Part shown: positions 9,113 through 39,738 of the stretch, one piece after another
Layout: every line of letters begins with the position of its first letter
Position numbering within the stretch: position 1 is the stretch's first letter
Assembly (NCBI GenBank): GCA_046483985.1
Contig: JAWOCD010000120.1
Location: 1 to 64,000, forward strand
Origin: Promethearchaeia archaeon
GTDB taxonomy: Archaea > Asgardarchaeota > Lokiarchaeia > Sigyniarchaeales > SOKP01
Length of the DNA stretch: 64,000 nt
Reading direction: 5' to 3'
Made by a program: the position numbers and the translations under genes
Notes under the pieces: model-generated
The model's database searches: none
What the model was told of the DNA's origin: nothing
Seen by the model: only the letters and a program-made list of their open reading frames with translations

Positions 9113-9463
9113 TTACTTTTTTTTCCAAATATTATATTTATAGCAAATTTCTTCGGATATGTAAATTCGGTTAGTAAATTTTAAATTTAAATCATCATAT
9201 TCTCTGTATTCTTCATTTTCAATAAGTTTTTTACCATCCTTTTCCGATATAATAAGGGGATATAGATACTCACCGTTAATTAAATCATCAAAAACAACAA
9301 TATAATCATCTTCATTTTCTTCCAAATCTTCATTTTGATAAGTCTCTAAAACAGAAGATTTCAAAGCATCTTCTTTTATGAATCTTTTATAGAATTTATC
9401 TTTCAATAAATTTTTAATTTGTACTATTATAAAACGCTTGTTTCTAATCAATTTTCTATTCAC
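9113..9463 (-). CDS. Hypothetical protein in an AT-rich patch
   Basis: 116-aa ORF with no recognisable motif. Confidence 0.4.
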   Translation of the reverse strand: MNRKLIRNKRFIIVQIKNLLKDKFYKRFIKEDALKSSVLETYQNEDLEENEDDYIVVFDDLINGEYLYPLIISEKDGKKLIENEEYREYDDLNLKFTNRIYISEEICYKYNIWKKK

Positions 9464-9892
9464 TTCTTTTATTTTTTTTTTTTAGTAAAAGCCGTTTCAA
9501 AATCAAGATCTCCGGTTTGATCCGTAAATCCGGTATAATCTTCTTGATTTTCGTAAATCCTAATTGTATTTTTTTTTTGCATATTTGAGTAACCTTTTAT
9601 TTTTTGTAGTTTTTTAATGTTTTGATATAATATAATTATATCTTATCCTATTTAAAGCTTTAGGCGTAATAGAAAGGCGTATAATATATTTTCTATGATT
9701 TAGATTATTCAGAATAATAATATCACTATTATGCTTTATATTATCCCTTGTATTAGTATCTGTATTAGTAATTGTTAAGTTATCTAACTTAACAGGGTTA
9801 ATAAGAAAGAGTAAAAAAAGTATTAAAAACCCTCTAAATCCATTTATAGGGTAAAAAAGGAAAAGATAATAAATTACTAATCTTGACTTTAT

Positions 9893-27505: not shown

Positions 27506-28036
27506 TTACTCCTTCCCGGTTGATCCAAAACCTCCCAGACCCCGTTCTGAGGGAGGAAGTTTATCTGCTTCATGAAATTCGTACGGATACATTTTTGCTA
27601 AAATTAATTGGCAAATTCTTTCTCCCTTTTTTAAAATCACTTCTTTATTGGATAAATTGACCACGATTGCCATCCATTCGTTTCGATAACCAGAATCTAT
27701 GGTTCCTGGAGAATTTACGATACTAATCCCTTGCCAGAGGGCTAGTCCACTCCGCGGGACAACTTTGAAAAAATATCCTCTCGGAATGGCCGTGGCAAAC
27801 CCTAACGGGCATCCGATTCGTTCAAGCGGTTTTAAGGTATACGTTTCAGCTTCGATATCAATCAGTTCTTTGTGATCGTCTTCCACTAAGATTTTCTTGA
27901 ATCCGTGAATCCGCGCATCAACACCAGCATCTCCGGCCTTCGCAAATCTCGGGACTTTAACCCCCTTCCTGAGCTTTTTAAAGGGAATAGAGAGAGGTGA
28001 AGATGCTTTTTTTTTCTTTTTATTTTGTTTACTCAT
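27506..28036 (-). CDS. dut: Trimeric dUTPase
   Basis: AGVD, PRSG, GTIDSGYR, RICQ, RGLGGFGSTG. Confidence 0.95.
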   Translation of the reverse strand: MSKQNKKKKKASSPLSIPFKKLRKGVKVPRFAKAGDAGVDARIHGFKKILVEDDHKELIDIEAETYTLKPLERIGCPLGFATAIPRGYFFKVVPRSGLALWQGISIVNSPGTIDSGYRNEWMAIVVNLSNKEVILKKGERICQLILAKMYPYEFHEADKLPPSERGLGGFGSTGKE

Positions 28037-28177
28037 TATCCTATGAACTTTCTTATTTTATCCTAAAAAAAAATTATTATTAAGGATATGATAGGACACA
28101 TACCATAAAGAACCTAAAAATTTTATTTATTTTTATTAATTTGTCTAAAGAATAATCGAATTCGTGAATTAATTAAT

Positions 28178-28633
28178 ATGATCGAAATAGAAAGATATGA
28201 TCCAAGAAAAGATAAAGATGCATTAAAAGAAATCTTCGAGGATTTTATACAAAATAAGTGCTATTTCTCATCCAATTGGGAAGAATTTGAAAAGGAACTT
28301 GATAAACGGTCCATGGATTTACAATATCGTAATGGAATGGTAGTCGCAAAAGAAGATGGTAATTTGGTGGGGTTTGGAACATACACGATGTTTACCGATT
28401 ATTTAGGGAATAATTGGGTCCTAATCCATCAAGTCATCACCAGAAAACAAGATGCATATCGAAAAGGCATTGAAGAGAAAATTATCGAAGAACTTCAATT
28501 ATATGTGAAGCGATCCCTAGGTGAGGATAAAGCATATTATATTTGCCTTGATTCTGATGGTTCTAAACGAAGTACATTGATGAAAATGGGAATTAAGAAA
28601 TCCGATAAGGAATGGTATGAAAAAGAATTATAG
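28178..28633 (+). CDS. GNAT-fold-like protein
   Basis: VVAKEDGNLVGFG and YRKGI resemble GNAT motif A. Confidence 0.55.
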   Translation: MIEIERYDPRKDKDALKEIFEDFIQNKCYFSSNWEEFEKELDKRSMDLQYRNGMVVAKEDGNLVGFGTYTMFTDYLGNNWVLIHQVITRKQDAYRKGIEEKIIEELQLYVKRSLGEDKAYYICLDSDGSKRSTLMKMGIKKSDKEWYEKEL

Positions 28634-28798
28634 TAAGTCAATTAAACTTTTATTTAACTTTTTTTTTTTCGTTAATCCGACATTTTTTTAATACATTTTT
28701 TCTTTTTGTGGCAAAGATAAACTTTTTAACAAATTATGGATTGAAATTTCAGGAATTTTAAGGAATTTGGATCTAAAAAAAGAATATCGATCAAGTCA

Positions 28799-30211
28799 TT
28801 ATTCTGGGGTTTTTGTTCTGATATCCGGGGTTTTTGACTTGATTTTGTCCTCTTGAAGTTTTTCTAATTTTTTTATACGCTTTTCTAATTCATTTCGTCT
28901 TTTATGGAGTTCTGATTTCTCATTTTTAATTTTGTTCCGCTCTTTTCTGATAATTTTCTTTTCTTTTTGGATATCTGCTTTCTGTTTATCAAGTCGTTTC
29001 TGGTCCCGTTGAATTTCCGAGTTTAATTTGCTTTTTTTATCCTCTAAATTGTCCACATCATTGCGCAAAGTATCATATTGATTTTTTAACTTATCTAAGT
29101 TTTTTTTCAATTTTTTTTCCTTTTTTTCAAGACGGTTTGTTTTTTTTCGGATCTTTTTCATCTTTTTCTTCTCTTTTCTTCGGGTCTTCTTTGCCTTTTT
29201 TCTTTCTTTCTTCAATTCATTTTTAGTATCGTCTAAGTCGTCTTGCTTATCTTCTAACTCATCGATTTTATAATCCACTTCTTGCTTTTTATGTCGTAAT
29301 TTTTCTTTTTGCTCATCGATCTTTCTCCGTTCTTCATCTAACTTATACTTTTGCCGAGAAATATCATTTTTGATTTTTGCCATTTCATCCTCTAAGTCAC
29401 TCTTTTGATCCGATAAATCTGAAACCTCATCTCTTAGACTCTCTACTTTCCCTTTGAGATTATCATAATCCTCTTTTAATTTATTTCTGGCCGCCTTCAG
29501 TTTGCCCAAATCTTCTTTTAAATCCTCACTATCTGCTCTTTTCTTCTTGATGTTCTTTTTGAGATTATCCAATTGTTCTTCAAGATCATCATGTCGTTTT
29601 TGGTCCCGTTGAATTTCCGAGTTTAACGTGCTTTTTTTATTCTCCAATTTGTCCGTTCTATCCTCTAAGTCACTCTTTTGATCCGATAAATCTGAAACCT
29701 CATCTCTTAGACTCTCTACTTTCCCTTTGAGATTATCATAATCCCCTTTTAATTTATTTCTTCCCGCCTTCAGTTTATCCAAGTCTTCTTTTAAATCCTC
29801 ACTATCTGCTCTTCTCTTCTTAATGTTCTTTTTGAGATCATCCAATTGATCTTCAAGATCATTTTTTCTCTGAGAAAGATCATGAATTTTCCTTTTAATG
29901 AGCGATAATTCCTTTTTTTTCTCAGTTAACTCTTGATTAATGTTATCCAGTTTCGCTTGCTCTCTTTTTTTCCGTTTTAATAATTTGTGATGGTTAGTTT
30001 CCAAATATTTTTGTTTTTCTTCAAGTTTTTCTACTTTATTTTTTTTCTTTTGTGCCACTTTAGCAATTTTTTCCCATTTTTCACGTTCTTGTTTAAGCTT
30101 TTGTTTTTCTTTCCTGATATCGTCTAATAACTGCTCATTTTTTCGAATAATATCGACTTTATCCGGGGTTTTCTCCTTTATTTTATATTTCGGGGGTGTT
30201 TTATCGTTCAT
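28799..30211 (-). CDS. Long charged coiled-coil protein with a 91-aa internal duplication
   Basis: Continuous heptads; DNA duplication with 273-bp period. Confidence 0.85.
   Translation of the reverse strand: MNDKTPPKYKIKEKTPDKVDIIRKNEQLLDDIRKEKQKLKQEREKWEKIAKVAQKKKNKVEKLEEKQKYLETNHHKLLKRKKREQAKLDNINQELTEKKKELSLIKRKIHDLSQRKNDLEDQLDDLKKNIKKRRADSEDLKEDLDKLKAGRNKLKGDYDNLKGKVESLRDEVSDLSDQKSDLEDRTDKLENKKSTLNSEIQRDQKRHDDLEEQLDNLKKNIKKKRADSEDLKEDLGKLKAARNKLKEDYDNLKGKVESLRDEVSDLSDQKSDLEDEMAKIKNDISRQKYKLDEERRKIDEQKEKLRHKKQEVDYKIDELEDKQDDLDDTKNELKKERKKAKKTRRKEKKKMKKIRKKTNRLEKKEKKLKKNLDKLKNQYDTLRNDVDNLEDKKSKLNSEIQRDQKRLDKQKADIQKEKKIIRKERNKIKNEKSELHKRRNELEKRIKKLEKLQEDKIKSKTPDIRTKTPE
29388..29860. repeat. 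Intragenic direct repeat, 273-bp period
   Basis: tcctctaagtcactcttttgatccgataaatctgaaacc... at 29388 and 29661. Confidence 0.9.
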
Positions 30212-30367
30212 CGCTATTTATAAAATTCTTTTTCTCATTTGAGATTTGAATCTAATATTTAAAATGATGGTAATTAACTTTTAAAACATTTATTTAAATA
30301 TATTTATAATTAATAATTATATATACAAATATATTGTCATTATAAGCAAAAATAGTAGTGATATAAT

Positions 30368-30763
30368 ATGTCTTTTGATGATGAATTTGATGAGGATTTA
30401 GACGAAGACTTGGAGTTTGAGGAAGAAGAGCCAGAGCCGATTCAATCCAAAACACCTAATGCTACACCAGCTGAAAAGACACCAGCTGCAAAGACACCTG
30501 CTGGAGGAGGAGGTAAAAAAATTACCTTATATTTTACCTCTACAATCGGACCTGGAGAAAAGAAACAGAAGTTAATCGTGAATGATGGAAATACCGTTGG
30601 AGATATAAAAGAGACCGTAGGTAATATTTTTGGTTTAAACCCCACAGATTTCCATCTCTCTTCTGGAGGAGTAACCATGGATGACGCTAATCCACTTAGT
30701 GACTACTCCGTTTCAGAAGGCGATGATGTCTTGTTAATACCTGCTAGTACTGCAGGTTTCTAA
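30368..30763 (+). CDS. Ubiquitin-like modifier, UFM1-like, with an acidic disordered N-arm; ends IPASTAG-F
   Basis: Beta-grasp pattern (TVGDIKETV...LSDYSVSEGDDVLLIP); first gene of the E1/E2/JAMM operon. Confidence 0.88.
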   Translation: MSFDDEFDEDLDEDLEFEEEEPEPIQSKTPNATPAEKTPAAKTPAGGGGKKITLYFTSTIGPGEKKQKLIVNDGNTVGDIKETVGNIFGLNPTDFHLSSGGVTMDDANPLSDYSVSEGDDVLLIPASTAGF

Positions 30764-30828
30764 AAAAGGTTCAAAATTTATAATTTTTTCTTTATTTTTT
30801 TATATTCATATTAAGGGTAGATAGCAAA

Positions 30829-32052
30829 ATGAAAGAAAGATCAGAATTTTTTAGCAAAGAATTAACCGATGAGGAACGAGAACTTTATGATCGCCAATTT
30901 CGATTAGAAGGGTGGTCTCAAAAGATAGTAAAAAACTCCCGTATTCTTATAATTGGGGTTGGAGGGCTTGGATGTGAAATTGCTAAAAACTTGGCTATGT
31001 TAGGGGTAGGTCATTTAGATTTAGTAGATTTAGATATCATTGAACATTCCAACTTAAATCGCCAGTTATTATTTGCAGGTGCTGAAATGGGAGCTCCAAA
31101 AGCTTTAGTGGGCGCCGAAAGACTTTCAGAAATAAACCCAAACATCGAGATTAAAGGATATCATACTTCACTCGAACAAGTTAATCCCATTTTATATAAA
31201 AAAGCAGATGTGGTGATTGGGGGGCTCGATTCGATGAATGCCCGCCTTAATCTTAACGCTCAATGTATTAGATTTAAAAAACCTCTAGTTGATGGGGGTG
31301 TTTCTGGTTATTACGGACACACCTATACCGTTTTTCCCTACGAAAATGCGTGTTACGAGTGTAACCCGCTACCAGTTGGAGAAAGTGAGGAAATGGCCGC
31401 CTGTACGGTGGTTGGAATTCCCAGAAAACGGATCCATTGTGTATTTAAGGGAAGCATGGCTTTTGAGGAAGAATTTGACAGAGAACCTAATCCTCAAAAT
31501 CTTGAGGATATGAAATTTATTAAGCAAAAAGCAAATGAATTAGTGGAAAAACATGATTTTTACCCTTATTATACGGAATCTGATATCGTGCAAATTATAG
31601 ACAGACATGATCCCGGTATTATAACGATAAACGCAGCAATATCGGCATTCCAATCCCATGAGGCTATGAAAATCCTACATTGGAATAGCGGAAATAAAGG
31701 ATTAGGAGAGCCCGTAAAAACTTATGTGATCTTTAACGCGGTCACTATGAAAATTTACCATATTGAAAAGAATAGAAACCCTGATTGTTTGCAATGCGGC
31801 GAACATGTACGAAGAGTCTCGGTCAAAATGAAAAAGGACTATCCTTGTTCTCGGATAGTTGATATACTTGAGCAAAATGGATTTCAAGTGGATCCTGAGT
31901 TTGAGCCAACCTTGACCGTGATGGATTTCAACAATATTAAGGTAGTTGACTTGGACAAAACTCCCCAAGAAAATGAATTAAGAAATTATGAACTTATCAC
32001 AGCTGCGGGATTCAGAGAGGGAGAAATATTTGTTACGCTAAAATTACATTAA
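30829..32052 (+). CDS. Ubiquitin-like activating enzyme E1 (UBA3/UBA2-like)
   Basis: YDRQ, GVGGLG, SNLNRQ, CYEC/CLQC Zn pairs, catalytic ACTVVGIPRKRIHC, C-terminal UFD-like extension. Confidence 0.93.
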   Translation: MKERSEFFSKELTDEERELYDRQFRLEGWSQKIVKNSRILIIGVGGLGCEIAKNLAMLGVGHLDLVDLDIIEHSNLNRQLLFAGAEMGAPKALVGAERLSEINPNIEIKGYHTSLEQVNPILYKKADVVIGGLDSMNARLNLNAQCIRFKKPLVDGGVSGYYGHTYTVFPYENACYECNPLPVGESEEMAACTVVGIPRKRIHCVFKGSMAFEEEFDREPNPQNLEDMKFIKQKANELVEKHDFYPYYTESDIVQIIDRHDPGIITINAAISAFQSHEAMKILHWNSGNKGLGEPVKTYVIFNAVTMKIYHIEKNRNPDCLQCGEHVRRVSVKMKKDYPCSRIVDILEQNGFQVDPEFEPTLTVMDFNNIKVVDLDKTPQENELRNYELITAAGFREGEIFVTLKLH

Positions 32053-32140
32053 AAATAAACAAACAAATAAACTAAATTTATTTATATGTTAAGTTTCTTT
32101 AATTATTAAAGGAAATAGAAATAAACTAAAGGATTGAGTT

Positions 32141-32668
32141 ATGAGTGTAAGAAGTAGTAGGATTAGTCAAGATTTTGCAGCCTTAAAAAAGCTTAAAAAG
32201 AAAGGGGAAATTTTACAATTAAAACCCTTTAACCCTAAAAAGAAGAGTATTGATCATTTAGCGATTTTAATTAAGGGACCCGAAGGAACCCCTTATGAGA
32301 AGGGGATTTTTAAGATTGAAATGAAATTCCCCCCTCAATATCCAAAACGACCGCCCTTTGTTCGTATGCACACGCCAATCTGGCATCCCAATTTCTGGCC
32401 TAAACCAGGCGAATACAAAGGACAGCGAAATATTTGTTTGGCTCTCGTAGATCCAAGTTTAATAGGAAAGAAAGGTGGGTGGAGCCCTTCAAAAACCGCA
32501 GTAACCGTAATTCAATCAATAAAAGCAATGTTGGATACTCGCGGAAAATATGTTAACCCCATGGATGTATTTAATAAGAAAGCTGCTCTAGAAATGATGA
32601 AAAAACCGAAGCGTTTTGAGAAAAAAGTAAAACATTTAGTTAAGAAATACGCAAATAAAAAATGGTGA
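32141..32668 (+). CDS. Ubiquitin-conjugating enzyme E2
   Basis: GPEGTPYEKG, FPPQYPKRPP, WHPNF...ICL (catalytic Cys), WSP. Confidence 0.95.
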   Translation: MSVRSSRISQDFAALKKLKKKGEILQLKPFNPKKKSIDHLAILIKGPEGTPYEKGIFKIEMKFPPQYPKRPPFVRMHTPIWHPNFWPKPGEYKGQRNICLALVDPSLIGKKGGWSPSKTAVTVIQSIKAMLDTRGKYVNPMDVFNKKAALEMMKKPKRFEKKVKHLVKKYANKKW

Positions 32669-33465
32669 AATATTTAATGCCCGATGCTCCAGAAGATACA
32701 GAAAAAATTAAAAAGGAAATAAAAGAAAAAATAAAAGGCAAACTTAAAAAACAGATAAAGAAAGAGCTTATGGACGAGATTTATCAAGAGCTCTTAAGTG
32801 AAGAAGAAGAAATTGCGGGTGATATTTCTTCTCATTTCAGTAAATCAAGTGAAACAAAGCAAAAAGAACAGAAATTAGAAGCCCCCAAACCAAAGAGAAA
32901 ATCTGCGAAAACATTGATCACGGTGAAAGCAGTATTGAAGATTGCGAGTCATTCATTAAAATATGCCAATGAAAAAATCCCAAAGGATGAATGGGTGGAA
33001 GTAATTGGGTTACTTGCAGGTAAGATCAATAATGAGAATGTTTTGGTTATCGAAGATGTTTATCCGATGGGGCATGGGTCTGCAGTGAATGCTGAAATAA
33101 AGGATTATAATAATTACATCAAGGCGTTTAAAGATATTAAAAAAAATAACCTTTTTATTTGCGGATGGTATCATTCTCACCCTTCCTATGGGTGTTTTAT
33201 GAGCGATGAGGATATGGGGACTCAAAAACGATATCAAAAATTATGGAAAAAGGCTCTTGCACTAGTAATTGACCCTTATGAAATAGACGGAACTTCCTAT
33301 GGTTTTCAAATTTTCAGAGCTAATCTGAGAAAGAATAAATGGTACCCCGTTTCTTATGATATTAAAGGATCTCTTGACCCAAAAACCCTACCGCAATTGG
33401 TCGATTTTATCAATCCAATTGTAGACGGAAAAGCAATTTATTTAGAGTATGATGAGAAAGAATAA
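32662..33465 (+). CDS. JAMM/MPN+ metalloprotease (Rpn11/CSN5-like)
   Basis: EVIGLL, WYHSHPSYGCFMSDED, VIDP; overlaps the E2 stop codon. Confidence 0.93.
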   Translation: MVKYLMPDAPEDTEKIKKEIKEKIKGKLKKQIKKELMDEIYQELLSEEEEIAGDISSHFSKSSETKQKEQKLEAPKPKRKSAKTLITVKAVLKIASHSLKYANEKIPKDEWVEVIGLLAGKINNENVLVIEDVYPMGHGSAVNAEIKDYNNYIKAFKDIKKNNLFICGWYHSHPSYGCFMSDEDMGTQKRYQKLWKKALALVIDPYEIDGTSYGFQIFRANLRKNKWYPVSYDIKGSLDPKTLPQLVDFINPIVDGKAIYLEYDEKE

Positions 33466-33492
33466 GCAAGTTATGAACTTTCCTACTCATCT

Positions 33493-34659
33493 ATGGTGAT
33501 ATTATTGATAAGAAATCGTAATTATCTTTATCTTTTTGGAATATTTGTGATTATTGGGCTGATTCATGCCCTTATAAGGTATTCTGCTCTTATTTTTTTA
33601 ACTTGGATGTTAATGGGGATATGGAGCGCATTTACAGTAAAATTATTTGAAAATATTAAATTATCGCGAGAACTAAATTCACCTAAAAATACCGAATTTT
33701 TTATTCTCTTCCCCATTTTTATCGGATTTTTTTTTCTCTTTTGGGGTCATTATACCCCTTTTCTAAATCAAAATATTTTCGGCAATAGTAATTTGTACCT
33801 TAGCCCTTGGATATTGATCTTTTCTTTACCATATCTGCTTTATTCTCTCTTTTCCCTCTTTTTATGCTTTCGAAATTATGATTTTGTCTATATTGGGAGC
33901 AAACCCTTTGAAGCAAATAAATTTGCGTTGTTTTTATCCATTTTGTGGATAATTTTTGGCCTTTTTTCATCTGTTTTTATTGAGGTGGGATATGGCATAA
34001 TGGAAGGGGTCTTTTCATTTACCGTTACAAATTTCTTTTTTGATTCATTTATTTTAGTCTTAACTGTAATCTCGGGATTATTATTAATATACGGACTTGC
34101 GAAACTACGAGGTCCATTACCTGAAATTAATCAAGAGATTATCGCAAGGAGAAGGAATCGGATTTCCCGTATACAAAATGAGCAGCCTAGAACCATCCAA
34201 AATACGAGAACCCGTTCCCGGGCCTCTTCGAGGAGGAGTACTCCAACTGGAAGTTCTGCTCGAACAAGTAGAACAAGTAGAACAAGTAGATCTCGATCAC
34301 GAAGAAAACGTAAGAAGAAAAAGAAGAGGAGGGCACCATCAAGAAAAACCACTAAAACCACTAAAACTATAAAATTAGGACAACTTAAACCCCGAACGGG
34401 AAATTTAAGCCTTGATGATTTTAAATGCATTCATTGCTTTCGCCTTCCAGAGTTAAAGAAAGACAAGGATAGGGGGATTGTTGTGTGCCCTCATTGTAGG
34501 TTCCCCTCCCATGCCGATGAGTTTAGAGAATGGTTGCGTAATTCAACATTATGTTCACGTTGCGATACTCCATTACCGAAATCATATGTCAGAAATCCTC
34601 CTATTATTCCCGTAGATGTTTATCTTAAGGCTATGAAGAAATTACTTAAGAGAAAATAA
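33493..34659 (+). CDS. Multi-pass membrane protein with a C-terminal RING-like domain (putative E3)
   Basis: About 6 TM helices, R/S/K-rich linker, C-x2-C-x16-C-x2-C-x4-H-x2-E-x3-W-x6-C-x2-C. Confidence 0.75.
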   Translation: MVILLIRNRNYLYLFGIFVIIGLIHALIRYSALIFLTWMLMGIWSAFTVKLFENIKLSRELNSPKNTEFFILFPIFIGFFFLFWGHYTPFLNQNIFGNSNLYLSPWILIFSLPYLLYSLFSLFLCFRNYDFVYIGSKPFEANKFALFLSILWIIFGLFSSVFIEVGYGIMEGVFSFTVTNFFFDSFILVLTVISGLLLIYGLAKLRGPLPEINQEIIARRRNRISRIQNEQPRTIQNTRTRSRASSRRSTPTGSSARTSRTSRTSRSRSRRKRKKKKKRRAPSRKTTKTTKTIKLGQLKPRTGNLSLDDFKCIHCFRLPELKKDKDRGIVVCPHCRFPSHADEFREWLRNSTLCSRCDTPLPKSYVRNPPIIPVDVYLKAMKKLLKRK

Positions 34660-34701
34660 AAATAAAATTTTGCCATAAAATTATATTAAGATGGTGAGAG
34701 A

Positions 34702-35469
34702 ATGGCTGAAATTAGAAAAGAGAAAGATGAAAAACCCTTAATAATAAAAAAAGAATATCATTGTTCTGTATGTCAAACAACGCATACGATAGAAATTCCA
34801 AGCAATTTAGCAGAAAGTAGAAAAAAATATCCATTTCCGTATGTATTTATTCATTCTAGCGAAGATGATAAAAATGATATAGTATCTATGCTCTATTTTG
34901 ACAAGAATTTAAAAATCCGAGGGTCAGAAGCCGTTAAGCTGGAGCAGAGTAATCTCGTTTCAAAGAATCTCACCAAACAACTTGTGAGCAAACTGACTAA
35001 TATTATCATGGACTTGGAAGAAGAAAACTTCCAACTTAAAAACCTCTTAAATTCTCCTCATATTGAAGAAATAATAAGGGAAGAGAGTAGAAATTTGAAG
35101 AAATCACTATTGGGGGAGTATAAGAAGAGGAAAAAACGCCAAAAACCCCAGGGATCGCATCATCGCAAAAAGAAAGTAAAGCCTAAAGTTCCAAAGAAGG
35201 ATACTTCAAGGGAAATATTCGTCTATTTTACCTCTACCGTTGGTCCAGAGGAACAGACAAAAAGACTAATCATTGATAAAACCATTACTATTGCAAAACA
35301 AAAGAGAAAAATCGGAAAGATTTTTGGGTTAATCCCTGCAAACTTTCATTTAGCTTCTGGGGGTCTTAGCTTAAAGGAAACCCGTACCTTACAATCTTAT
35401 AATATCTCACCTAATGATGAAATCTTGATAATCCCCTCAAGCACCGCAGGGGCATTTTATTTTGGGTAA
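34702..35469 (+). CDS. Zn-finger - coiled coil - Ubl fusion; ends IPSSTAG-AFYFG
   Basis: CSVC..H, YPFPYVFIH, IRGSE; C-terminal domain clearly homologous to 30368..30763. Confidence 0.82.
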   Translation: MAEIRKEKDEKPLIIKKEYHCSVCQTTHTIEIPSNLAESRKKYPFPYVFIHSSEDDKNDIVSMLYFDKNLKIRGSEAVKLEQSNLVSKNLTKQLVSKLTNIIMDLEEENFQLKNLLNSPHIEEIIREESRNLKKSLLGEYKKRKKRQKPQGSHHRKKKVKPKVPKKDTSREIFVYFTSTVGPEEQTKRLIIDKTITIAKQKRKIGKIFGLIPANFHLASGGLSLKETRTLQSYNISPNDEILIIPSSTAGAFYFG

Positions 35470-35480
35470 AACCTCTTTCC

Positions 35481-35513
35481 TGAACTACCGCGCTCTAATG
35501 AGTTATGGATTCG
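35481..35513 (-). mobile_element. Degenerate IS200/IS605-like right-end remnant
   Basis: Minus strand reads ...cattagagcgcggtagttca, like the copies at 37566 and 47671. Confidence 0.4.
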
Positions 35514-35763
35514 TATTCCGTTGCAAACTGCTCGCCTAAGTACAGAGGATTACAGTAACTTCAAACGCTAACATTTCAGGGCTTGCGGTTACAAGATGAA
35601 CTTGGTTATCGTCCATCAATATTTTTATAGTATTATGCGTTTATAGATGTATGTGAAGGGAGAAAAATAAATTATGGTTTTAATTCAATTTAACCTAGAA
35701 AAAATTATAAAGATATAAAATAACTTAAAATTATACTACTTAAATTTCTGTTGTGGTTAAAGA

Positions 35764-36657
35764 ATGTCCGAAAAGAAAAAAGAAAGGAGAGAAACCCCTT
35801 CAACAGTAAGGAAGATATATCATTGTCCCGTGTGTAAAACGAATCATACGATCAAGCTTCCCAGTAATTTATCTGAAGACCGAAAGAAATATCCTTTTCC
35901 CTATGTTTTTATCCACTCCAGTGAGGATAATAAACATGACATTGTATCAATGCTTTATATTGATAAACACTTGCAAATACGCGGGTCAGAGGCCGTTAAA
36001 CTGGAAAATAGTAATTTAGTTTCAGAGGATGTTTCCAAACAAGTTGTAAATAAATTAACGAATATTATTATGGATCTGGAAGATGAGAACTTTAAACTTA
36101 AGAGTCTCGTTCAATCTCAAAATATTGAAGACATGATAAAAGAAGAAACCAAAAATTTAAAGGAAGCCTTGTTAGGTCCTGATAAGAAGAAGTCCAAAAC
36201 CGAAGAACGTGGAGAGAGTAAACCTCTTTCTTTTGAAGTTAAAGATACTCAAAATCAGCAGAATATGACGTTTCAGGAGAACCTAGATTCTATACCGAAA
36301 CCGGAGCATCCAAAAGAAAAAGAAATCAATTCAAAAACATCTGAAGATAGTTCCGCGGTCCATTCAAAAACCCCCCAGGAAGTCAAAGCCGAGAAAATTG
36401 CAGTCTATTTTGCATCTACTATCGGTCCCGAGAAAAAAAAACAAAAGCTGGCTGTTAACAAGACCGTACCAGTAAAGGAACTAAAAAAAACGGTAGGAGA
36501 GATTTACGGGTTAATCACGGCAAATTTTCACTTATCTGCCGGTGGCCTTACCTTAGATGAAAATCGCACTCTCAACTTTTATAATCTGTCTCATAATGAT
36601 GAAATTTTAATAATTCCCTCAAGTACTGCGGGAATTCATTCAATAACTTCCAGATAA
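35764..36657 (+). CDS. Zn-finger - coiled coil - Ubl fusion; ends IPSSTAG-IHSITSR
   Basis: Close paralog of 34702..35469 with the same Ubl C-domain. Confidence 0.82.
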   Translation: MSEKKKERRETPSTVRKIYHCPVCKTNHTIKLPSNLSEDRKKYPFPYVFIHSSEDNKHDIVSMLYIDKHLQIRGSEAVKLENSNLVSEDVSKQVVNKLTNIIMDLEDENFKLKSLVQSQNIEDMIKEETKNLKEALLGPDKKKSKTEERGESKPLSFEVKDTQNQQNMTFQENLDSIPKPEHPKEKEINSKTSEDSSAVHSKTPQEVKAEKIAVYFASTIGPEKKKQKLAVNKTVPVKELKKTVGEIYGLITANFHLSAGGLTLDENRTLNFYNLSHNDEILIIPSSTAGIHSITSR

Positions 36658-36802
36658 TTTTATCTGTTTTCTTTTTCTCCTTTTTTTCCCTTATATTCCT
36701 TAATAATTGTCAAAATATACAAACCTAATCCGTAAAAAATTAGTATAATCAATTATTTTGTTAATTATAAAACTCTTGTTTCTCCCCGTTTAAGTGAAAA
36801 AA

Positions 36803-37534
36803 ATGACAAAGGATGCTGAGGTTATAGAGGAAGTATTAGAATTGAGGGAAAATGCGGAATATAAAAAGGCGTATCAGAAAATCAGTAAGCTCTATGAACA
36901 AAATAAAAAATCGTCAGAAGTTAAACAAACATATATTGATACATTATTTGCTTATGCCTTTTATTTGAGTGATGATTGCGTTTTGCAATTTGAAAAGGCA
37001 GCAGAATGCCTTAAAGAAATTCTACAGTTAGATCCCGAAAATTACCGTGCTTATTACAATTTAGGAATAACTTATTATGATATGGACAAAACTGAAAAAG
37101 CTCTTAAGATGTATAATGAAGCGTTAAAGCTTAAGCCGGATAATAAATACGTTCATTATAATATTGGAATAATCTATGAGGATAAGAATCAATTTAAGAA
37201 AGCGCTCAAATATTATAGACGCGCGATAAATCTTGATAAGGATTTTTTATACGCAAAACAAGCAAAACATTCGTTAGAACGGTATATTGAAAACAATCCA
37301 GAGAGCATAAAATCCGAACGACATCCTGAAAAACTTAAACGCCTTAAATCCTTATTTCGCGTTTCTAATAAGGTGAGGCTCGACGATATTCAAGAAATCA
37401 TAAATTTTAGTCGAGAAAAAACACTTGATTTAGTGGTAGATTGGGCAGAAGATTATGGGTTGCATATTAATGGAGATTTCTTGGTTTTAAATGAAAGAAG
37501 TAAATCGGCTTTTCTTAAAAATTTAGAAATCTAG
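36803..37534 (+). CDS. TPR protein with a C-terminal wHTH/PCI-like domain
   Basis: AYYNLG...ALK.KP and HYNIG...YYRRAI TPR repeats; C-terminal VRLDDIQEII...INGDFL. Confidence 0.8.
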   Translation: MTKDAEVIEEVLELRENAEYKKAYQKISKLYEQNKKSSEVKQTYIDTLFAYAFYLSDDCVLQFEKAAECLKEILQLDPENYRAYYNLGITYYDMDKTEKALKMYNEALKLKPDNKYVHYNIGIIYEDKNQFKKALKYYRRAINLDKDFLYAKQAKHSLERYIENNPESIKSERHPEKLKRLKSLFRVSNKVRLDDIQEIINFSREKTLDLVVDWAEDYGLHINGDFLVLNERSKSAFLKNLEI

Positions 37535-37565
37535 AATTTTTTATTGTTTAGGATTACTTAGTCTT

Positions 37566-37934
37566 TGAACTACTCACGCTTGACGGCATGATGTAGTCGT
37601 TATCAATACGATACCAGTCGTTTCGACAAATAATCTGCTCAGTCCCTTAGCTCGGAGGATAGAGCTTACGGTGCTTTAAGACGTGTTATTGCTCTGTAGA
37701 GGCTGAAACTTCTTTATCCTTATCAAAAAAGGGTTGTCTCCTGTAATAATTAACTAAGTTCCAGATAGCACCTCTTCTGACCAACATCGCCTTTAGAATC
37801 CGCTGTTGTGGTTTATTTGGTTTCAATTCTATAGTATTAGTGCGAAGCATAGAGAATCTTTTGGTTAATGTGGTTCTTAGGCTAAAATTAGGGCAAAATT
37901 CATCCTCGCCCTAAAGACGGGGTATTCTTTTGCC
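37566..37934 (-). mobile_element. Non-autonomous IS200/IS605-like element (~370 bp)
   Basis: Hairpin GGCAAAA..CCTCGCCCTAAAGACGGGG..TTTTGCC at one end, hairpin plus GTAGTTCA at the other; no ORF. Confidence 0.6.
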
Positions 37935-38045
37935 TTTAATAAAAAAATGAGAGGTAATGTTCTTTTTGAATAATATTTAAATATGAGCTATGTAATAAAT
38001 AGTATTACCAATTAAATATGTAAAGTATTAAAGAGGTTAAAAAAT

Positions 38046-38252
38046 ATGGGAGTATACAAAAGCGTTGAGCTAGTAGGTACCAGTGAAGAGAATTGGGCTA
38101 CCGCAGTTAAAAATGCTTATAATGAAGCCACAAAGACACTTCGCGGTATCCGTAATATTACAATCCTTCAATCGGATGTAAAGGTAAAAGAAGATGAGGA
38201 TCTGTTAATTTATCGCGTCCGATGTCAGGTCAATTTTGAAATTGAAAAATAA
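38046..38252 (+). CDS. Dodecin-family protein
   Basis: VYKSVELVGTSEENWATAVKNA...YRV...VNF. Confidence 0.88.
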   Translation: MGVYKSVELVGTSEENWATAVKNAYNEATKTLRGIRNITILQSDVKVKEDEDLLIYRVRCQVNFEIEK

Positions 38253-38406
38253 ATTCGTAATTTTAACTATTTTAATATAATTTCTCTTTCTTTTTTTTAT
38301 CCTCCTTTCTTATTCAAATTAACCTCTAAAAATTAATGGTAGGAAGAAAAGGAAAAATAAAAAAAATAGGTAGTTAAGAGAATCTCTAAATTAATAAAAT
38401 CGCTGA

Positions 38407-39738
38407 TTATGCATCAGGGTTCTCTAAAAGAACTGCGACTCCTTGGCCGCCCCCACAGCACGCATTTGCTAACCCGTATTTTGCTCCTTTATCTCTTAAA
38501 ATACGTGCTAAGGTACCAGGAAGTCGAATCATTGTGGCGCCCAACGGATGGCCGATTGCCGTACTTCCGCCCATTACATTAACTTTTTCCATTGGAATAT
38601 CAAACTTATCCATACAATTGAGAGCAACAACGCAGAATGCTTCATTAATTTCCCAGTAGTCAATATCATCCGCTTCCATACCTGCATTTTCTAATGCCAT
38701 TTTTGTAGCAGGAACCGGTCCTCGACCCATCACGGATGGATCAACTGCTCCCCAGCCTACTGAGACGATTTTTGCAAGGGGTTCAAGCCCTCGCTTTTTT
38801 GCCTCTTCAGCTTCCATTAGTACGCATGCAGTTGCACCAGCATTGAGAGGAGAAGCATTACCAGGAGTAATAACTCCTTTTTTCGTACCTTCACGTTCTT
38901 TGTATCCGCTTCGACCACCAATGTCTTCGCCCTGAATGTTCTTCTCCAAATAGAAGGGTTTAGAAAGTCGTGGAAGTTGAGAAACTGTCTCTAAATCGGA
39001 CTTTCGAGCAGCCATATCCTTATTAATCATCTTTTCTTCATCGACGTTTCCTTCGGCGTGACCTTTAATTGGGATAATTTCACCGCCCCAAACGCCCGAA
39101 GTAAACCAATTCTTTTCCTGGCTTTCAATGGTCAGATTATGAGAACGTACACCGAGTTCATCCAAGTCCTCTTTGGTAAAAGTTGGAGTTTCTTGTTCGT
39201 AGAGCTTCTGAGCGGTTTGAATCATGTTAACTGTAGTCATAATGTCGTATTTAGGTCGGTACCATTTCGATTTCTTATTAATCATGTTCAAATTTGGCTT
39301 GATATGCTTGTTGTATTTGATGTTCATGGAAATTCGTGTCATATGTTCGAACCCTGCAGCGAGTACAACCTTACTGTTTCCGGTCATAATTTCCATCGCA
39401 CCGTTAGACATAGCAGTTCCCGCGGAACCACATTGCCGTTCACAGAAATAAGCTGGTGTATCAACGGGGAAATCCGCCAAAAAGATGGGTAATCTGCCTC
39501 CATAGGTCCAATTTTCATGAACCGGAAGAGCACAAGCCATGATAACTTGGTCTATTTGTTCTTTGGTGATGCCTTTATCATTTAATTTTTGATCAAAAAA
39601 TTTCATTAATAAAGTCGCGGTTAATTCATCACCACGAATTTCGCCGAATACATCTCTTTCTGGCTTTCCCGGGCGAGAGCGGGAAAAGGGAGTACGAGCA
39701 TAATCAATCAGCCAAACTTCTTTTAATTCTTTTGCCAT
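38407..39738 (-). CDS. Acetyl-CoA C-acyltransferase (thiolase)
   Basis: RQCGS, NEAF, GHPLGA, CCGGGQG. Confidence 0.95.
   Translation of the reverse strand: MAKELKEVWLIDYARTPFSRSRPGKPERDVFGEIRGDELTATLLMKFFDQKLNDKGITKEQIDQVIMACALPVHENWTYGGRLPIFLADFPVDTPAYFCERQCGSAGTAMSNGAMEIMTGNSKVVLAAGFEHMTRISMNIKYNKHIKPNLNMINKKSKWYRPKYDIMTTVNMIQTAQKLYEQETPTFTKEDLDELGVRSHNLTIESQEKNWFTSGVWGGEIIPIKGHAEGNVDEEKMINKDMAARKSDLETVSQLPRLSKPFYLEKNIQGEDIGGRSGYKEREGTKKGVITPGNASPLNAGATACVLMEAEEAKKRGLEPLAKIVSVGWGAVDPSVMGRGPVPATKMALENAGMEADDIDYWEINEAFCVVALNCMDKFDIPMEKVNVMGGSTAIGHPLGATMIRLPGTLARILRDKGAKYGLANACCGGGQGVAVLLENPDA

Follow-up and report, generated by a model that had tools for sequence, protein, structure and literature searches.

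The archaeon Caldiarchaeum subterraneum encodes in one operon a pro-ubiquitin, an E1, an E2, a small RING protein and an Rpn11-like protease of the JAMM family (PMC5654768, PMC6043591). This protease reportedly cleaves the precursor of ubiquitin right behind its terminal Gly-Gly (PMC6043591), and the cascade has been reconstituted in vitro (PMC6043591, PMC5654768). From Asgard archaea too, ubiquitin operons as such are already known (PMC9192718; bioRxiv 10.1101/2023.07.25.550441). Here we consider an operon from a Promethearchaeia archaeon (assembly GCA_046483985.1, contig JAWOCD010000120.1), lying within positions 1 to 64,000 of the forward strand, a stretch of 64,000 nucleotides called the window hereafter. 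As in Caldiarchaeum, genes for the precursor of a ubiquitin-like modifier (Ubl), an E1, an E2 and a JAMM protease lie together, and a short tail follows the terminal Gly of the modifier. Unlike in Caldiarchaeum, the modifier ends in Ala-Gly, within the sequence Ser-Thr-Ala-Gly (STAG), and the place of the E3 would be taken by a polytopic membrane protein that matches no RING family in Pfam. A further difference is that the modifier also occurs as the C-terminal part of larger proteins, behind a zinc domain, coiled coil and linker of 170-210 residues together, in two adjacent genes that we call fusion A and fusion B. With moderate confidence, we read the two fusions from their sequences as N-terminally extended, conjugatable Ubl modifiers. 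Our literature search found no paper on these fusions or on a STAG-type Ubl.

The initial annotation of the two genes had described tandem paralogues with a CxxC-x3-H...H N-domain, a coiled coil, divergent linkers and a C-terminal Ubl, in which similarity stops exactly after STAG. Inspection of both open reading frames (ORFs), their pairwise alignment (59% identity) and AlphaFold models bear this description out. The parts are arranged as follows, residue numbers being those of the 255-aa protein.

34702-35469, + strand: fusion A gene, 255 aa
34741-34941, + strand: fusion A, beta-domain with CxxC-x3-H...H, residues 14-80
34963-35112, + strand: fusion A, coiled-coil helix, residues 88-137
35113-35211, + strand: fusion A, basic disordered linker, residues 138-170
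35212-35451, + strand: fusion A, Ubl with STAG at its end, residues 171-250
35452-35466, + strand: fusion A, tail AFYFG, then stop
35470-35763, + strand: A+T-rich spacer of 294 bp between the fusion genes
35764-36657, + strand: fusion B gene, 297 aa
about 35803-36003, + strand: fusion B, the same beta-domain as in A
about 36026-36175, + strand: fusion B, helix
about 36176-36393, + strand: fusion B, long linker, mixed or acidic, with SKTP
about 36394-36633, + strand: fusion B, Ubl with STAG at its end
36634-36654, + strand: fusion B, tail IHSITSR, then stop

The C-terminal end carries much of the argument. The free Ubl of the operon and both fusions share ...IP(A/S)STAG and then part company: the free Ubl continues with F, fusion A with AFYFG and fusion B with IHSITSR. 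Among 5.8 billion proteins searched, 27 homologues of the fusions turned up, 36-59% identical overall, and the same pattern, which is not due to chance, is seen in them: ILIIPSSTAG is invariant in all 27 and is followed by 0-11 unconserved residues. In 5 of 32 motif-bearing fusions the protein ends exactly at the Gly, with no propeptide. Among 120 representatives of the free Ubl, 106 have STAG and the other 14 an S(I/V/M)AG or LMIP variant; after the Gly of the 106, there is no residue in 61 and there are 1-4 residues in 45. The end is Ala-Gly in every one of the 32 fusions and 120 free Ubls, and not the Gly-Gly of a Caldiarchaeum-type operon. The fusions have what is expected of a conjugatable Ubl, namely, a Gly at the exposed end or with a short unconserved propeptide behind it, a flexible tail, and cognate E1, E2 and protease encoded alongside. 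Integral, non-conjugated Ubls have no reactive C-terminal Gly; both window proteins keep theirs.

The domain bearing this end is modelled as a beta-grasp in fusion A, with strands at residues 171-178, 185-192, 215-219 and 240-245 and a helix at 197-208, at a predicted local distance difference test (pLDDT) score of 83-91. Against PF00240, whose gathering cut-off is 25.4 bits, the fusions score 23.2 (A) and 17.3 (B) and the free Ubl 24.9, all just under. A profile of the family matches ubiquitin chains in the PDB, the best single domain with E 2.5e-5, and Dsk2 is among its weak matches. The free Ubl shares 44% and 53% identity with the Ubl parts of the two fusions, and in 25 of 80 aligned columns, including ST.GP.EK, FHL and LIP.STAG, the same residue is at least 90% conserved in fused and free Ubls alike. 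The last strand ends at 245 and pLDDT is below 50 from 249, which places the tail beyond the fold. Fold stability therefore cannot account for its invariance. In these models the invariance points to recognition by partners, and the adenylation site of E1 together with the cleft of the protease could explain it.

The same Ubl is found at the end of other proteins. The initial annotation had proposed looking for further proteins ending in this domain, and a scan of 301 genomes returned two kinds that keep the Gly, along with a membrane protein whose Ubl-like end lacks it (see below); a database search for longer proteins ending in it gave the same family only. One kind is a HerA-like P-loop ATPase of 592-602 aa from another Asgard family (L029:238-2016, - strand; L030:911-2719, + strand), in which HerA_C and DUF87 score over the Pfam cut-offs and the sequence stops exactly at STAG. 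At L030 the gene adjoins a free Ubl and a coiled-coil protein with K-T-P ends (see below), neither of which is seen in the L029 stretch. The other is a 307-aa protein from the window's own taxonomic family (L032:2583-3506, + strand), with a Roadblock-like N-domain (Robl_LC7, 17 bits, under the cut-off), an SKTP linker, the Ubl and again an exact STAG end. Against PF00240 both kinds exceed the cut-off, HerA with 28.5 bits and Roadblock with 30.1. In a tree of 99 Ubl domains and 80 columns, many forks of which are unresolved, the free Ubls and the HerA Ubls form one clade (98/98) and the zinc-domain fusions lie across that branch. The HerA Ubls are nested among the free Ubls, with the free Ubl from their own genome as sister (98/91). 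Since they nest with the free Ubls while the zinc-domain fusions stand apart, fusion arose at least twice independently. No new argument for a conjugatable module is stronger than this one, that the reactive end was retained in both cases.

In the N-terminal part of the fusions, C21, C24, H28, H51, D67 and R73 vary little or not at all across 49 family members. The CxxC-x3-H...H residues fit a Cys2His2 site, which would bind a metal. In AlphaFold models built on family alignments the domain consists of five beta strands (residues 14-80, pLDDT about 87-96), followed by the long helix at 88-137 and by a linker that is disordered from 138 to 166 (pLDDT below 50). A homodimer model of residues 1-140 forms a parallel, in-register coiled coil with contacts from 98:98 to 116:116, and its interface score (interaction prediction score from aligned errors, ipSAE) is 0.45, against 0.00 for the best control. 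Among solved structures, 20 of 30 homodimers attain the 0.45 mark, and 1 of 23 monomers does. Three runs agreed in at least 69% of contacts, with partner pLDDT of at least 67. The modelling thus supports a parallel dimer of the N-domain-helix module.

No Pfam or NCBIfam family matched the N-domain, and the best Foldseek match in the PDB had an E of only 0.1. In a wide search with VIA-align, single-helix matches to residues 85-140 dominated (Z at most 5.5), and the beta-domain was barely probed thereby. Atlas searches with the N-domain returned Promethearchaeota clusters only, plus weak leads to CPXCG/Zn_ribbon_21 and DUF1062; the domain is nearly confined to Promethearchaeota-type archaea. There it also occurs with its helix as a stand-alone protein of 114-146 aa, commonly at 114-130 aa, and some TPR proteins of 739 aa begin with it. 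The neighbourhoods of two stand-alone proteins gave no pattern: one adjoins an Arf/Ras-like GTPase, and the contig of the other is too short to judge. The window's genome has weak paralogues of the module in proteins of roughly 200 aa. Proteins of about that length in this genome, with a related C-terminal module, CxxC...P.P.V..H...RG, were noted at L007:1078-1698 and 1808-2407, L008:1534-2142 (- strand) and L009:1045-1701; those of L007 and L008 join the CxxC module to weak longin or adaptor-sigma-like N-parts, and that of L009 has two copies of it.

The genes that could serve the fusions lie immediately upstream. The Ubl, E1, E2 and JAB genes, a membrane protein, both fusion genes and a TPR protein form a compact cluster on the + strand (30368-37534), beside a divergent gene for a coiled-coil protein.

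28799-30211, - strand: coiled-coil protein, 470 aa, divergently transcribed, with K-T-P motifs at both termini
30368-30763, + strand: free STAG-type Ubl, 131 aa, with an acidic N-arm, SKTP/KTP repeats, Ubl, and STAG followed by F
30829-32052, + strand: E1 of the ThiF family (ThiF, 198 bits)
32141-32668, + strand: E2 (UQ_con, 94 bits), with an HPN motif and Cys
32662-33465, + strand: JAB/MPN metalloprotease of the JAMM type (JAB, 63 bits), with an intact HSHP...S..D motif
33493-34659, + strand: polytopic membrane protein, 388 aa, with a basic linker rich in Arg, Lys and Ser and a Cys/His-rich C-terminus

The nearest solved relatives of the E1 are UBA1, SAE2 and UBA3 (E about 1e-37), while UBA5 follows only at about 1e-14; that of the JAMM protease is the Rpn11-like protein of Caldiarchaeum (E 1.3e-15). 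By their sequences the E1, E2 and JAMM proteins look competent. A UFM1 system would have a UBA5-type E1, which this is not, and neither a Ufm1 match in Pfam at E up to 0.1 nor a UFM1 chain among the 60 best PDB matches of the profile was found. The membrane protein matched no Pfam family, RING included, at E up to 0.1. Its Cys/His-rich C-terminus is conserved at locus L013, and the protein is a candidate for a membrane-bound, RING-like E3. Ten ORFs of the 4.06-Mb genome score over the Pfam cut-off for a JAB/MPN domain. The N-arm of the free Ubl (30368-30520, + strand) opens with an acidic-aromatic motif such as FDDEFDEDL, which is kept in four complete orthologues (L013, L015 and two copies at L033) and is looser in L016 and L030. 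An Rfam search of 28000-39000, which includes the spacer between the fusion genes, gave zero matches. Public reads cover small shares of the locus, from whose uncovered parts no conclusion follows: short DNA contigs from freshwater sediment match 240-277 bases with at most one difference, and two 151-base contigs from salt-lake RNA libraries map to 35683-35833 and 36282-36432. Because RNA libraries can contain DNA, the latter are not proof of transcription.

The genome has a second Ubl system. A Ubl of 84 aa that ends in ...QAGG plus Ile is encoded on contig C70 (3969-4199, - strand; L004:1492-1746), and contig C116 carries a second E1 of 529 aa and an E2 of 169 aa (L034:4835-6424 and 9200-9709). 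The fusions have the STAG type of their own operon and not the GG type. The presence of both types of Ubl, with a second E1 and E2, suggests two orthogonal cascades.

How the fusions might work can be outlined from these components. Each would consist of a Cys2His2 zinc beta-domain on a parallel dimeric coiled coil, joined through a disordered linker to a paralogue of the operon's STAG-type Ubl. The Rpn11-like JAMM would trim the tail of 5 (A) or 7 (B) residues after the Gly, and the exposed Ala-Gly carboxylate would be adenylated by the E1. The fusion protein would then be handed over to the E2 and joined to lysines of targets, perhaps with help from the membrane RING-like protein. Since the carrier is predicted to dimerise, each particle would present two attachable ends. 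Cleavage, charging and ligation, and any role of the zinc domain, are what we infer from the pattern. The initial annotation had gone as far as the delivery of a zinc-domain payload to targets. Its view of the fusions as protease-matured, conjugatable Ubls gains from the pattern of sequence and evolution, the gene context and the other fusions; the delivery of a payload stays a supposition.

Related loci show the same association in part. Where one of the 27 homologues has a named source, this belongs to Promethearchaeota or Hermodarchaeota, and one homologue more, from Thorarchaeota, came out of a further search. At L013 and L016 the same Ubl-E1-E2-JAB set is present a few kb away from the fusion and adjoins there a proteasome beta subunit and a coiled-coil protein of roughly 690 aa with a RING-like, Cys/His-rich end. 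At L015 the fusion adjoins a proteasome subunit, the same long protein and the K-T-P coiled-coil protein, and the end of the contig cuts the free Ubl. The long protein has the following positions.

L013:516-2603: coiled-coil protein of about 690 aa, RING-like end
L015:7497-9551: the same
L016:899-2968: the same

Its Pfam match to zf-RING_2 is recorded in L013 only, and no such protein was seen adjoining the operon in the window. A Mod(r)/Vps37 match in P0037 (17.8 bits, under the cut-off) falls in a coiled-coil region and was not used.

Several observations count against a conjugatable modifier. The family profile finds a match in 155 of the 301 sampled genomes of the phylum, nearly all of them Ubl-only among the matches listed, and a full-length fusion is present in only four: that of the window and three from a sister genus. 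The fusion is therefore sporadic and does not belong to the core of the system; in its place, a close stand-alone N-domain-helix protein is present in three genomes of another genus. At the Hermodarchaeota locus L014, Pfam identified no ubiquitin-system gene within 10 kb of the fusion. The fused Ubls evolve faster, with a mean pairwise identity of 63% as against 76% in the free Ubls, and 16 columns are conserved in the free Ubls only. The end is Ala-Gly rather than Gly-Gly, and the literature that we found holds no experimental test of any STAG-type Ubl. Finally, three representatives of a diverged subfamily, P0029, P0030 and P0040, end in IPAQI, VPAQNFRYIS and IPAKYKVK and are also without the STIGPGEK block, and two of the three have an extra N-terminal region. 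They keep the N-domain and the Ubl without the Gly, so the pairing can serve without conjugation.

The Gly-less subfamily leads to the alternative that deserves most attention, although we consider it rather unlikely: the Ubl may be a docking or regulatory module that is never ligated and brings a dimeric zinc-domain protein to the E1, E2, JAMM or proteasome. The fusion would then be an adaptor, a shuttle or a competitive regulator, and its tail would be conserved through a seat in an enzyme cleft. Besides the Gly-less subfamily and the 16 relaxed positions, this account can draw on a 269-aa membrane protein (L033:4191-5000, + strand) whose Ubl-like C-terminus lacks the Gly (...IPSRKEK...) and whose gene sits between two free STAG Ubl genes, near E1, E2 and JAB. 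It leaves unexplained why conservation stops exactly at the Gly, and why the tail after it varies from 0 to 11 residues, in parallel with the free modifier. Moreover, in integral Ubl proteins of the Rad23/Dsk2 type the domain usually sits at the N-terminus or inside the protein and has no terminal Gly. We regard it as very improbable that the fusions are storage precursors, from which a second protease would cut the linker to release a free Ubl, with the N-domain as a separate product. The linker is indeed predicted to be disordered, and the N-domain and helix are common as a stand-alone protein, but for such a cut neither a candidate protease nor a conserved cleavage site is known, and a deubiquitinase cuts after a Ubl and not before it. 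Besides, ubiquitin is mostly N-terminal in the eukaryotic precursor fusions (PMC6332867), and the fused Ubls group apart from the free Ubls in the tree, which argues that they are not spare copies.

A further possibility arises from a motif, (S/T)-K-x-P, that recurs through the system. K162 and P164, just before the Ubl and usually within S-K-T-P, are invariant in all 27 homologous fusions, the Thr being variable, and (S/T)KxP is present in the N-arm of 108 of the 120 free Ubls. The 470-aa coiled-coil protein has K-T-P twice at each end. Its relatives have the motif at both ends in L013, L015, L030 (where the N-terminal copy is KVP) and L033 and at the N-terminus only in L016, so that both ends carry it in 5 of the 6 loci examined. 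Within the genome these are the richest ORFs in K-T-P, with 4 copies in the coiled-coil protein and 3 in the free Ubl, in a total of 175 over 4238 ORFs. A protein of contig C116 rich in the same motif was dismissed as incidental, its copies lying in a Pro/Gln-rich repeat. The coiled-coil gene is conserved beside the Ubl in related loci, and we infer that its product is linked to the Ubl system. The K-x-P before every Ubl and the K-T-P of the coiled-coil protein may be the same signal. Our guess, by analogy with the SUMO consensus, is an acceptor site or a signal for recognition by E2. If it is an acceptor site, the fusions could be mainly acceptors or scaffolds, their (S/T)-K-x-P lysine being modified by the free Ubl while the fused Ubl only recruits E2 or E3 in cis. 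We think this improbable, despite the invariant K162 and P164 and the motifs of the free Ubl and of the coiled-coil protein, because it leaves unexplained an invariant Gly with a disposable tail, and in fusion A itself the motif is degenerate (KVP, with no Ser or Thr before it). Another reading, which we would also call a long shot, is the most novel one: the STAG-type Ubl would be a portable module that makes any protein attachable, and the bivalent, dimeric fusions would be linked through (S/T)-K-x-P lysines, by chemistry of the ubiquitin type, into a covalently cross-linked coiled-coil scaffold near the membrane-bound E3. The acceptors in such a scaffold would be the K-x-P sites of the fusion linkers, of the arm of the free Ubl and of both ends of the 470-aa coiled-coil protein.

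The feature is real, conserved and well delimited, and it is most probably a Ubl modifier bearing a dimeric zinc domain. No known relatives of eukaryotes are closer than the Asgard archaea, whose ubiquitin systems are taken as precursors of the eukaryotic ones. If the fusions are indeed ligated, the attachment of functional cargo, be it a stalked, dimeric zinc domain, a HerA-like ATPase or a Roadblock-like domain, would stand next to simple tagging as an early use of the ubiquitin cascade. The STAG tail and the GG-type Ubl in the same genome would provide a natural case of two orthogonal cascades. With a single E1, E2 and JAMM and with three modifiers, all within one window, the system is small and should be directly testable in vitro.

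Among multidomain proteins with a single ubiquitin-fold domain, to which the fusions belong, Rad23 and Dsk2 have an N-terminal Ubl with no reactive terminal Gly. In contrast, the Ubl of the fusions stands at the C-terminus and has an invariant Gly with a disposable tail after it, and only P0029, P0030 and P0040 resemble the Rad23/Dsk2 type. ISG15 and FAT10 are two-domain conjugatable Ubls of vertebrates in which only the C-terminal Ubl has the reactive Gly. The fusions, as conjugatable modifiers, would be like them in that an extra N-terminal domain travels with the reactive Ubl to the target. The difference is that the extra domain of ISG15 and FAT10 is a second Ubl, whereas here it is an unrelated zinc beta-domain, specific to Asgard archaea, on a dimeric coiled coil. 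Eukaryotic ubiquitin fusions, in which ubiquitin is mostly N-terminal, offer no model for this layout (PMC6332867). The attachment of cargo has a parallel of another kind in bacteria, in CBASS (the antiphage signalling system based on cyclic oligonucleotides), where Cap2 and Cap3 act and a whole cGAS-like enzyme is conjugated through its C-terminus (PMC10097602). CBASS is a bacterial defence system, while no defence context is seen at the fusion locus; its CD-NTase has no Ubl fold at the end, and its E1 and E2 are fused in one protein. In spite of these differences, a whole functional protein is the conjugated unit there, as we propose for the fusions, and there an E1/E2-type enzyme and a JAMM protease act on the C-terminus, as they would here.

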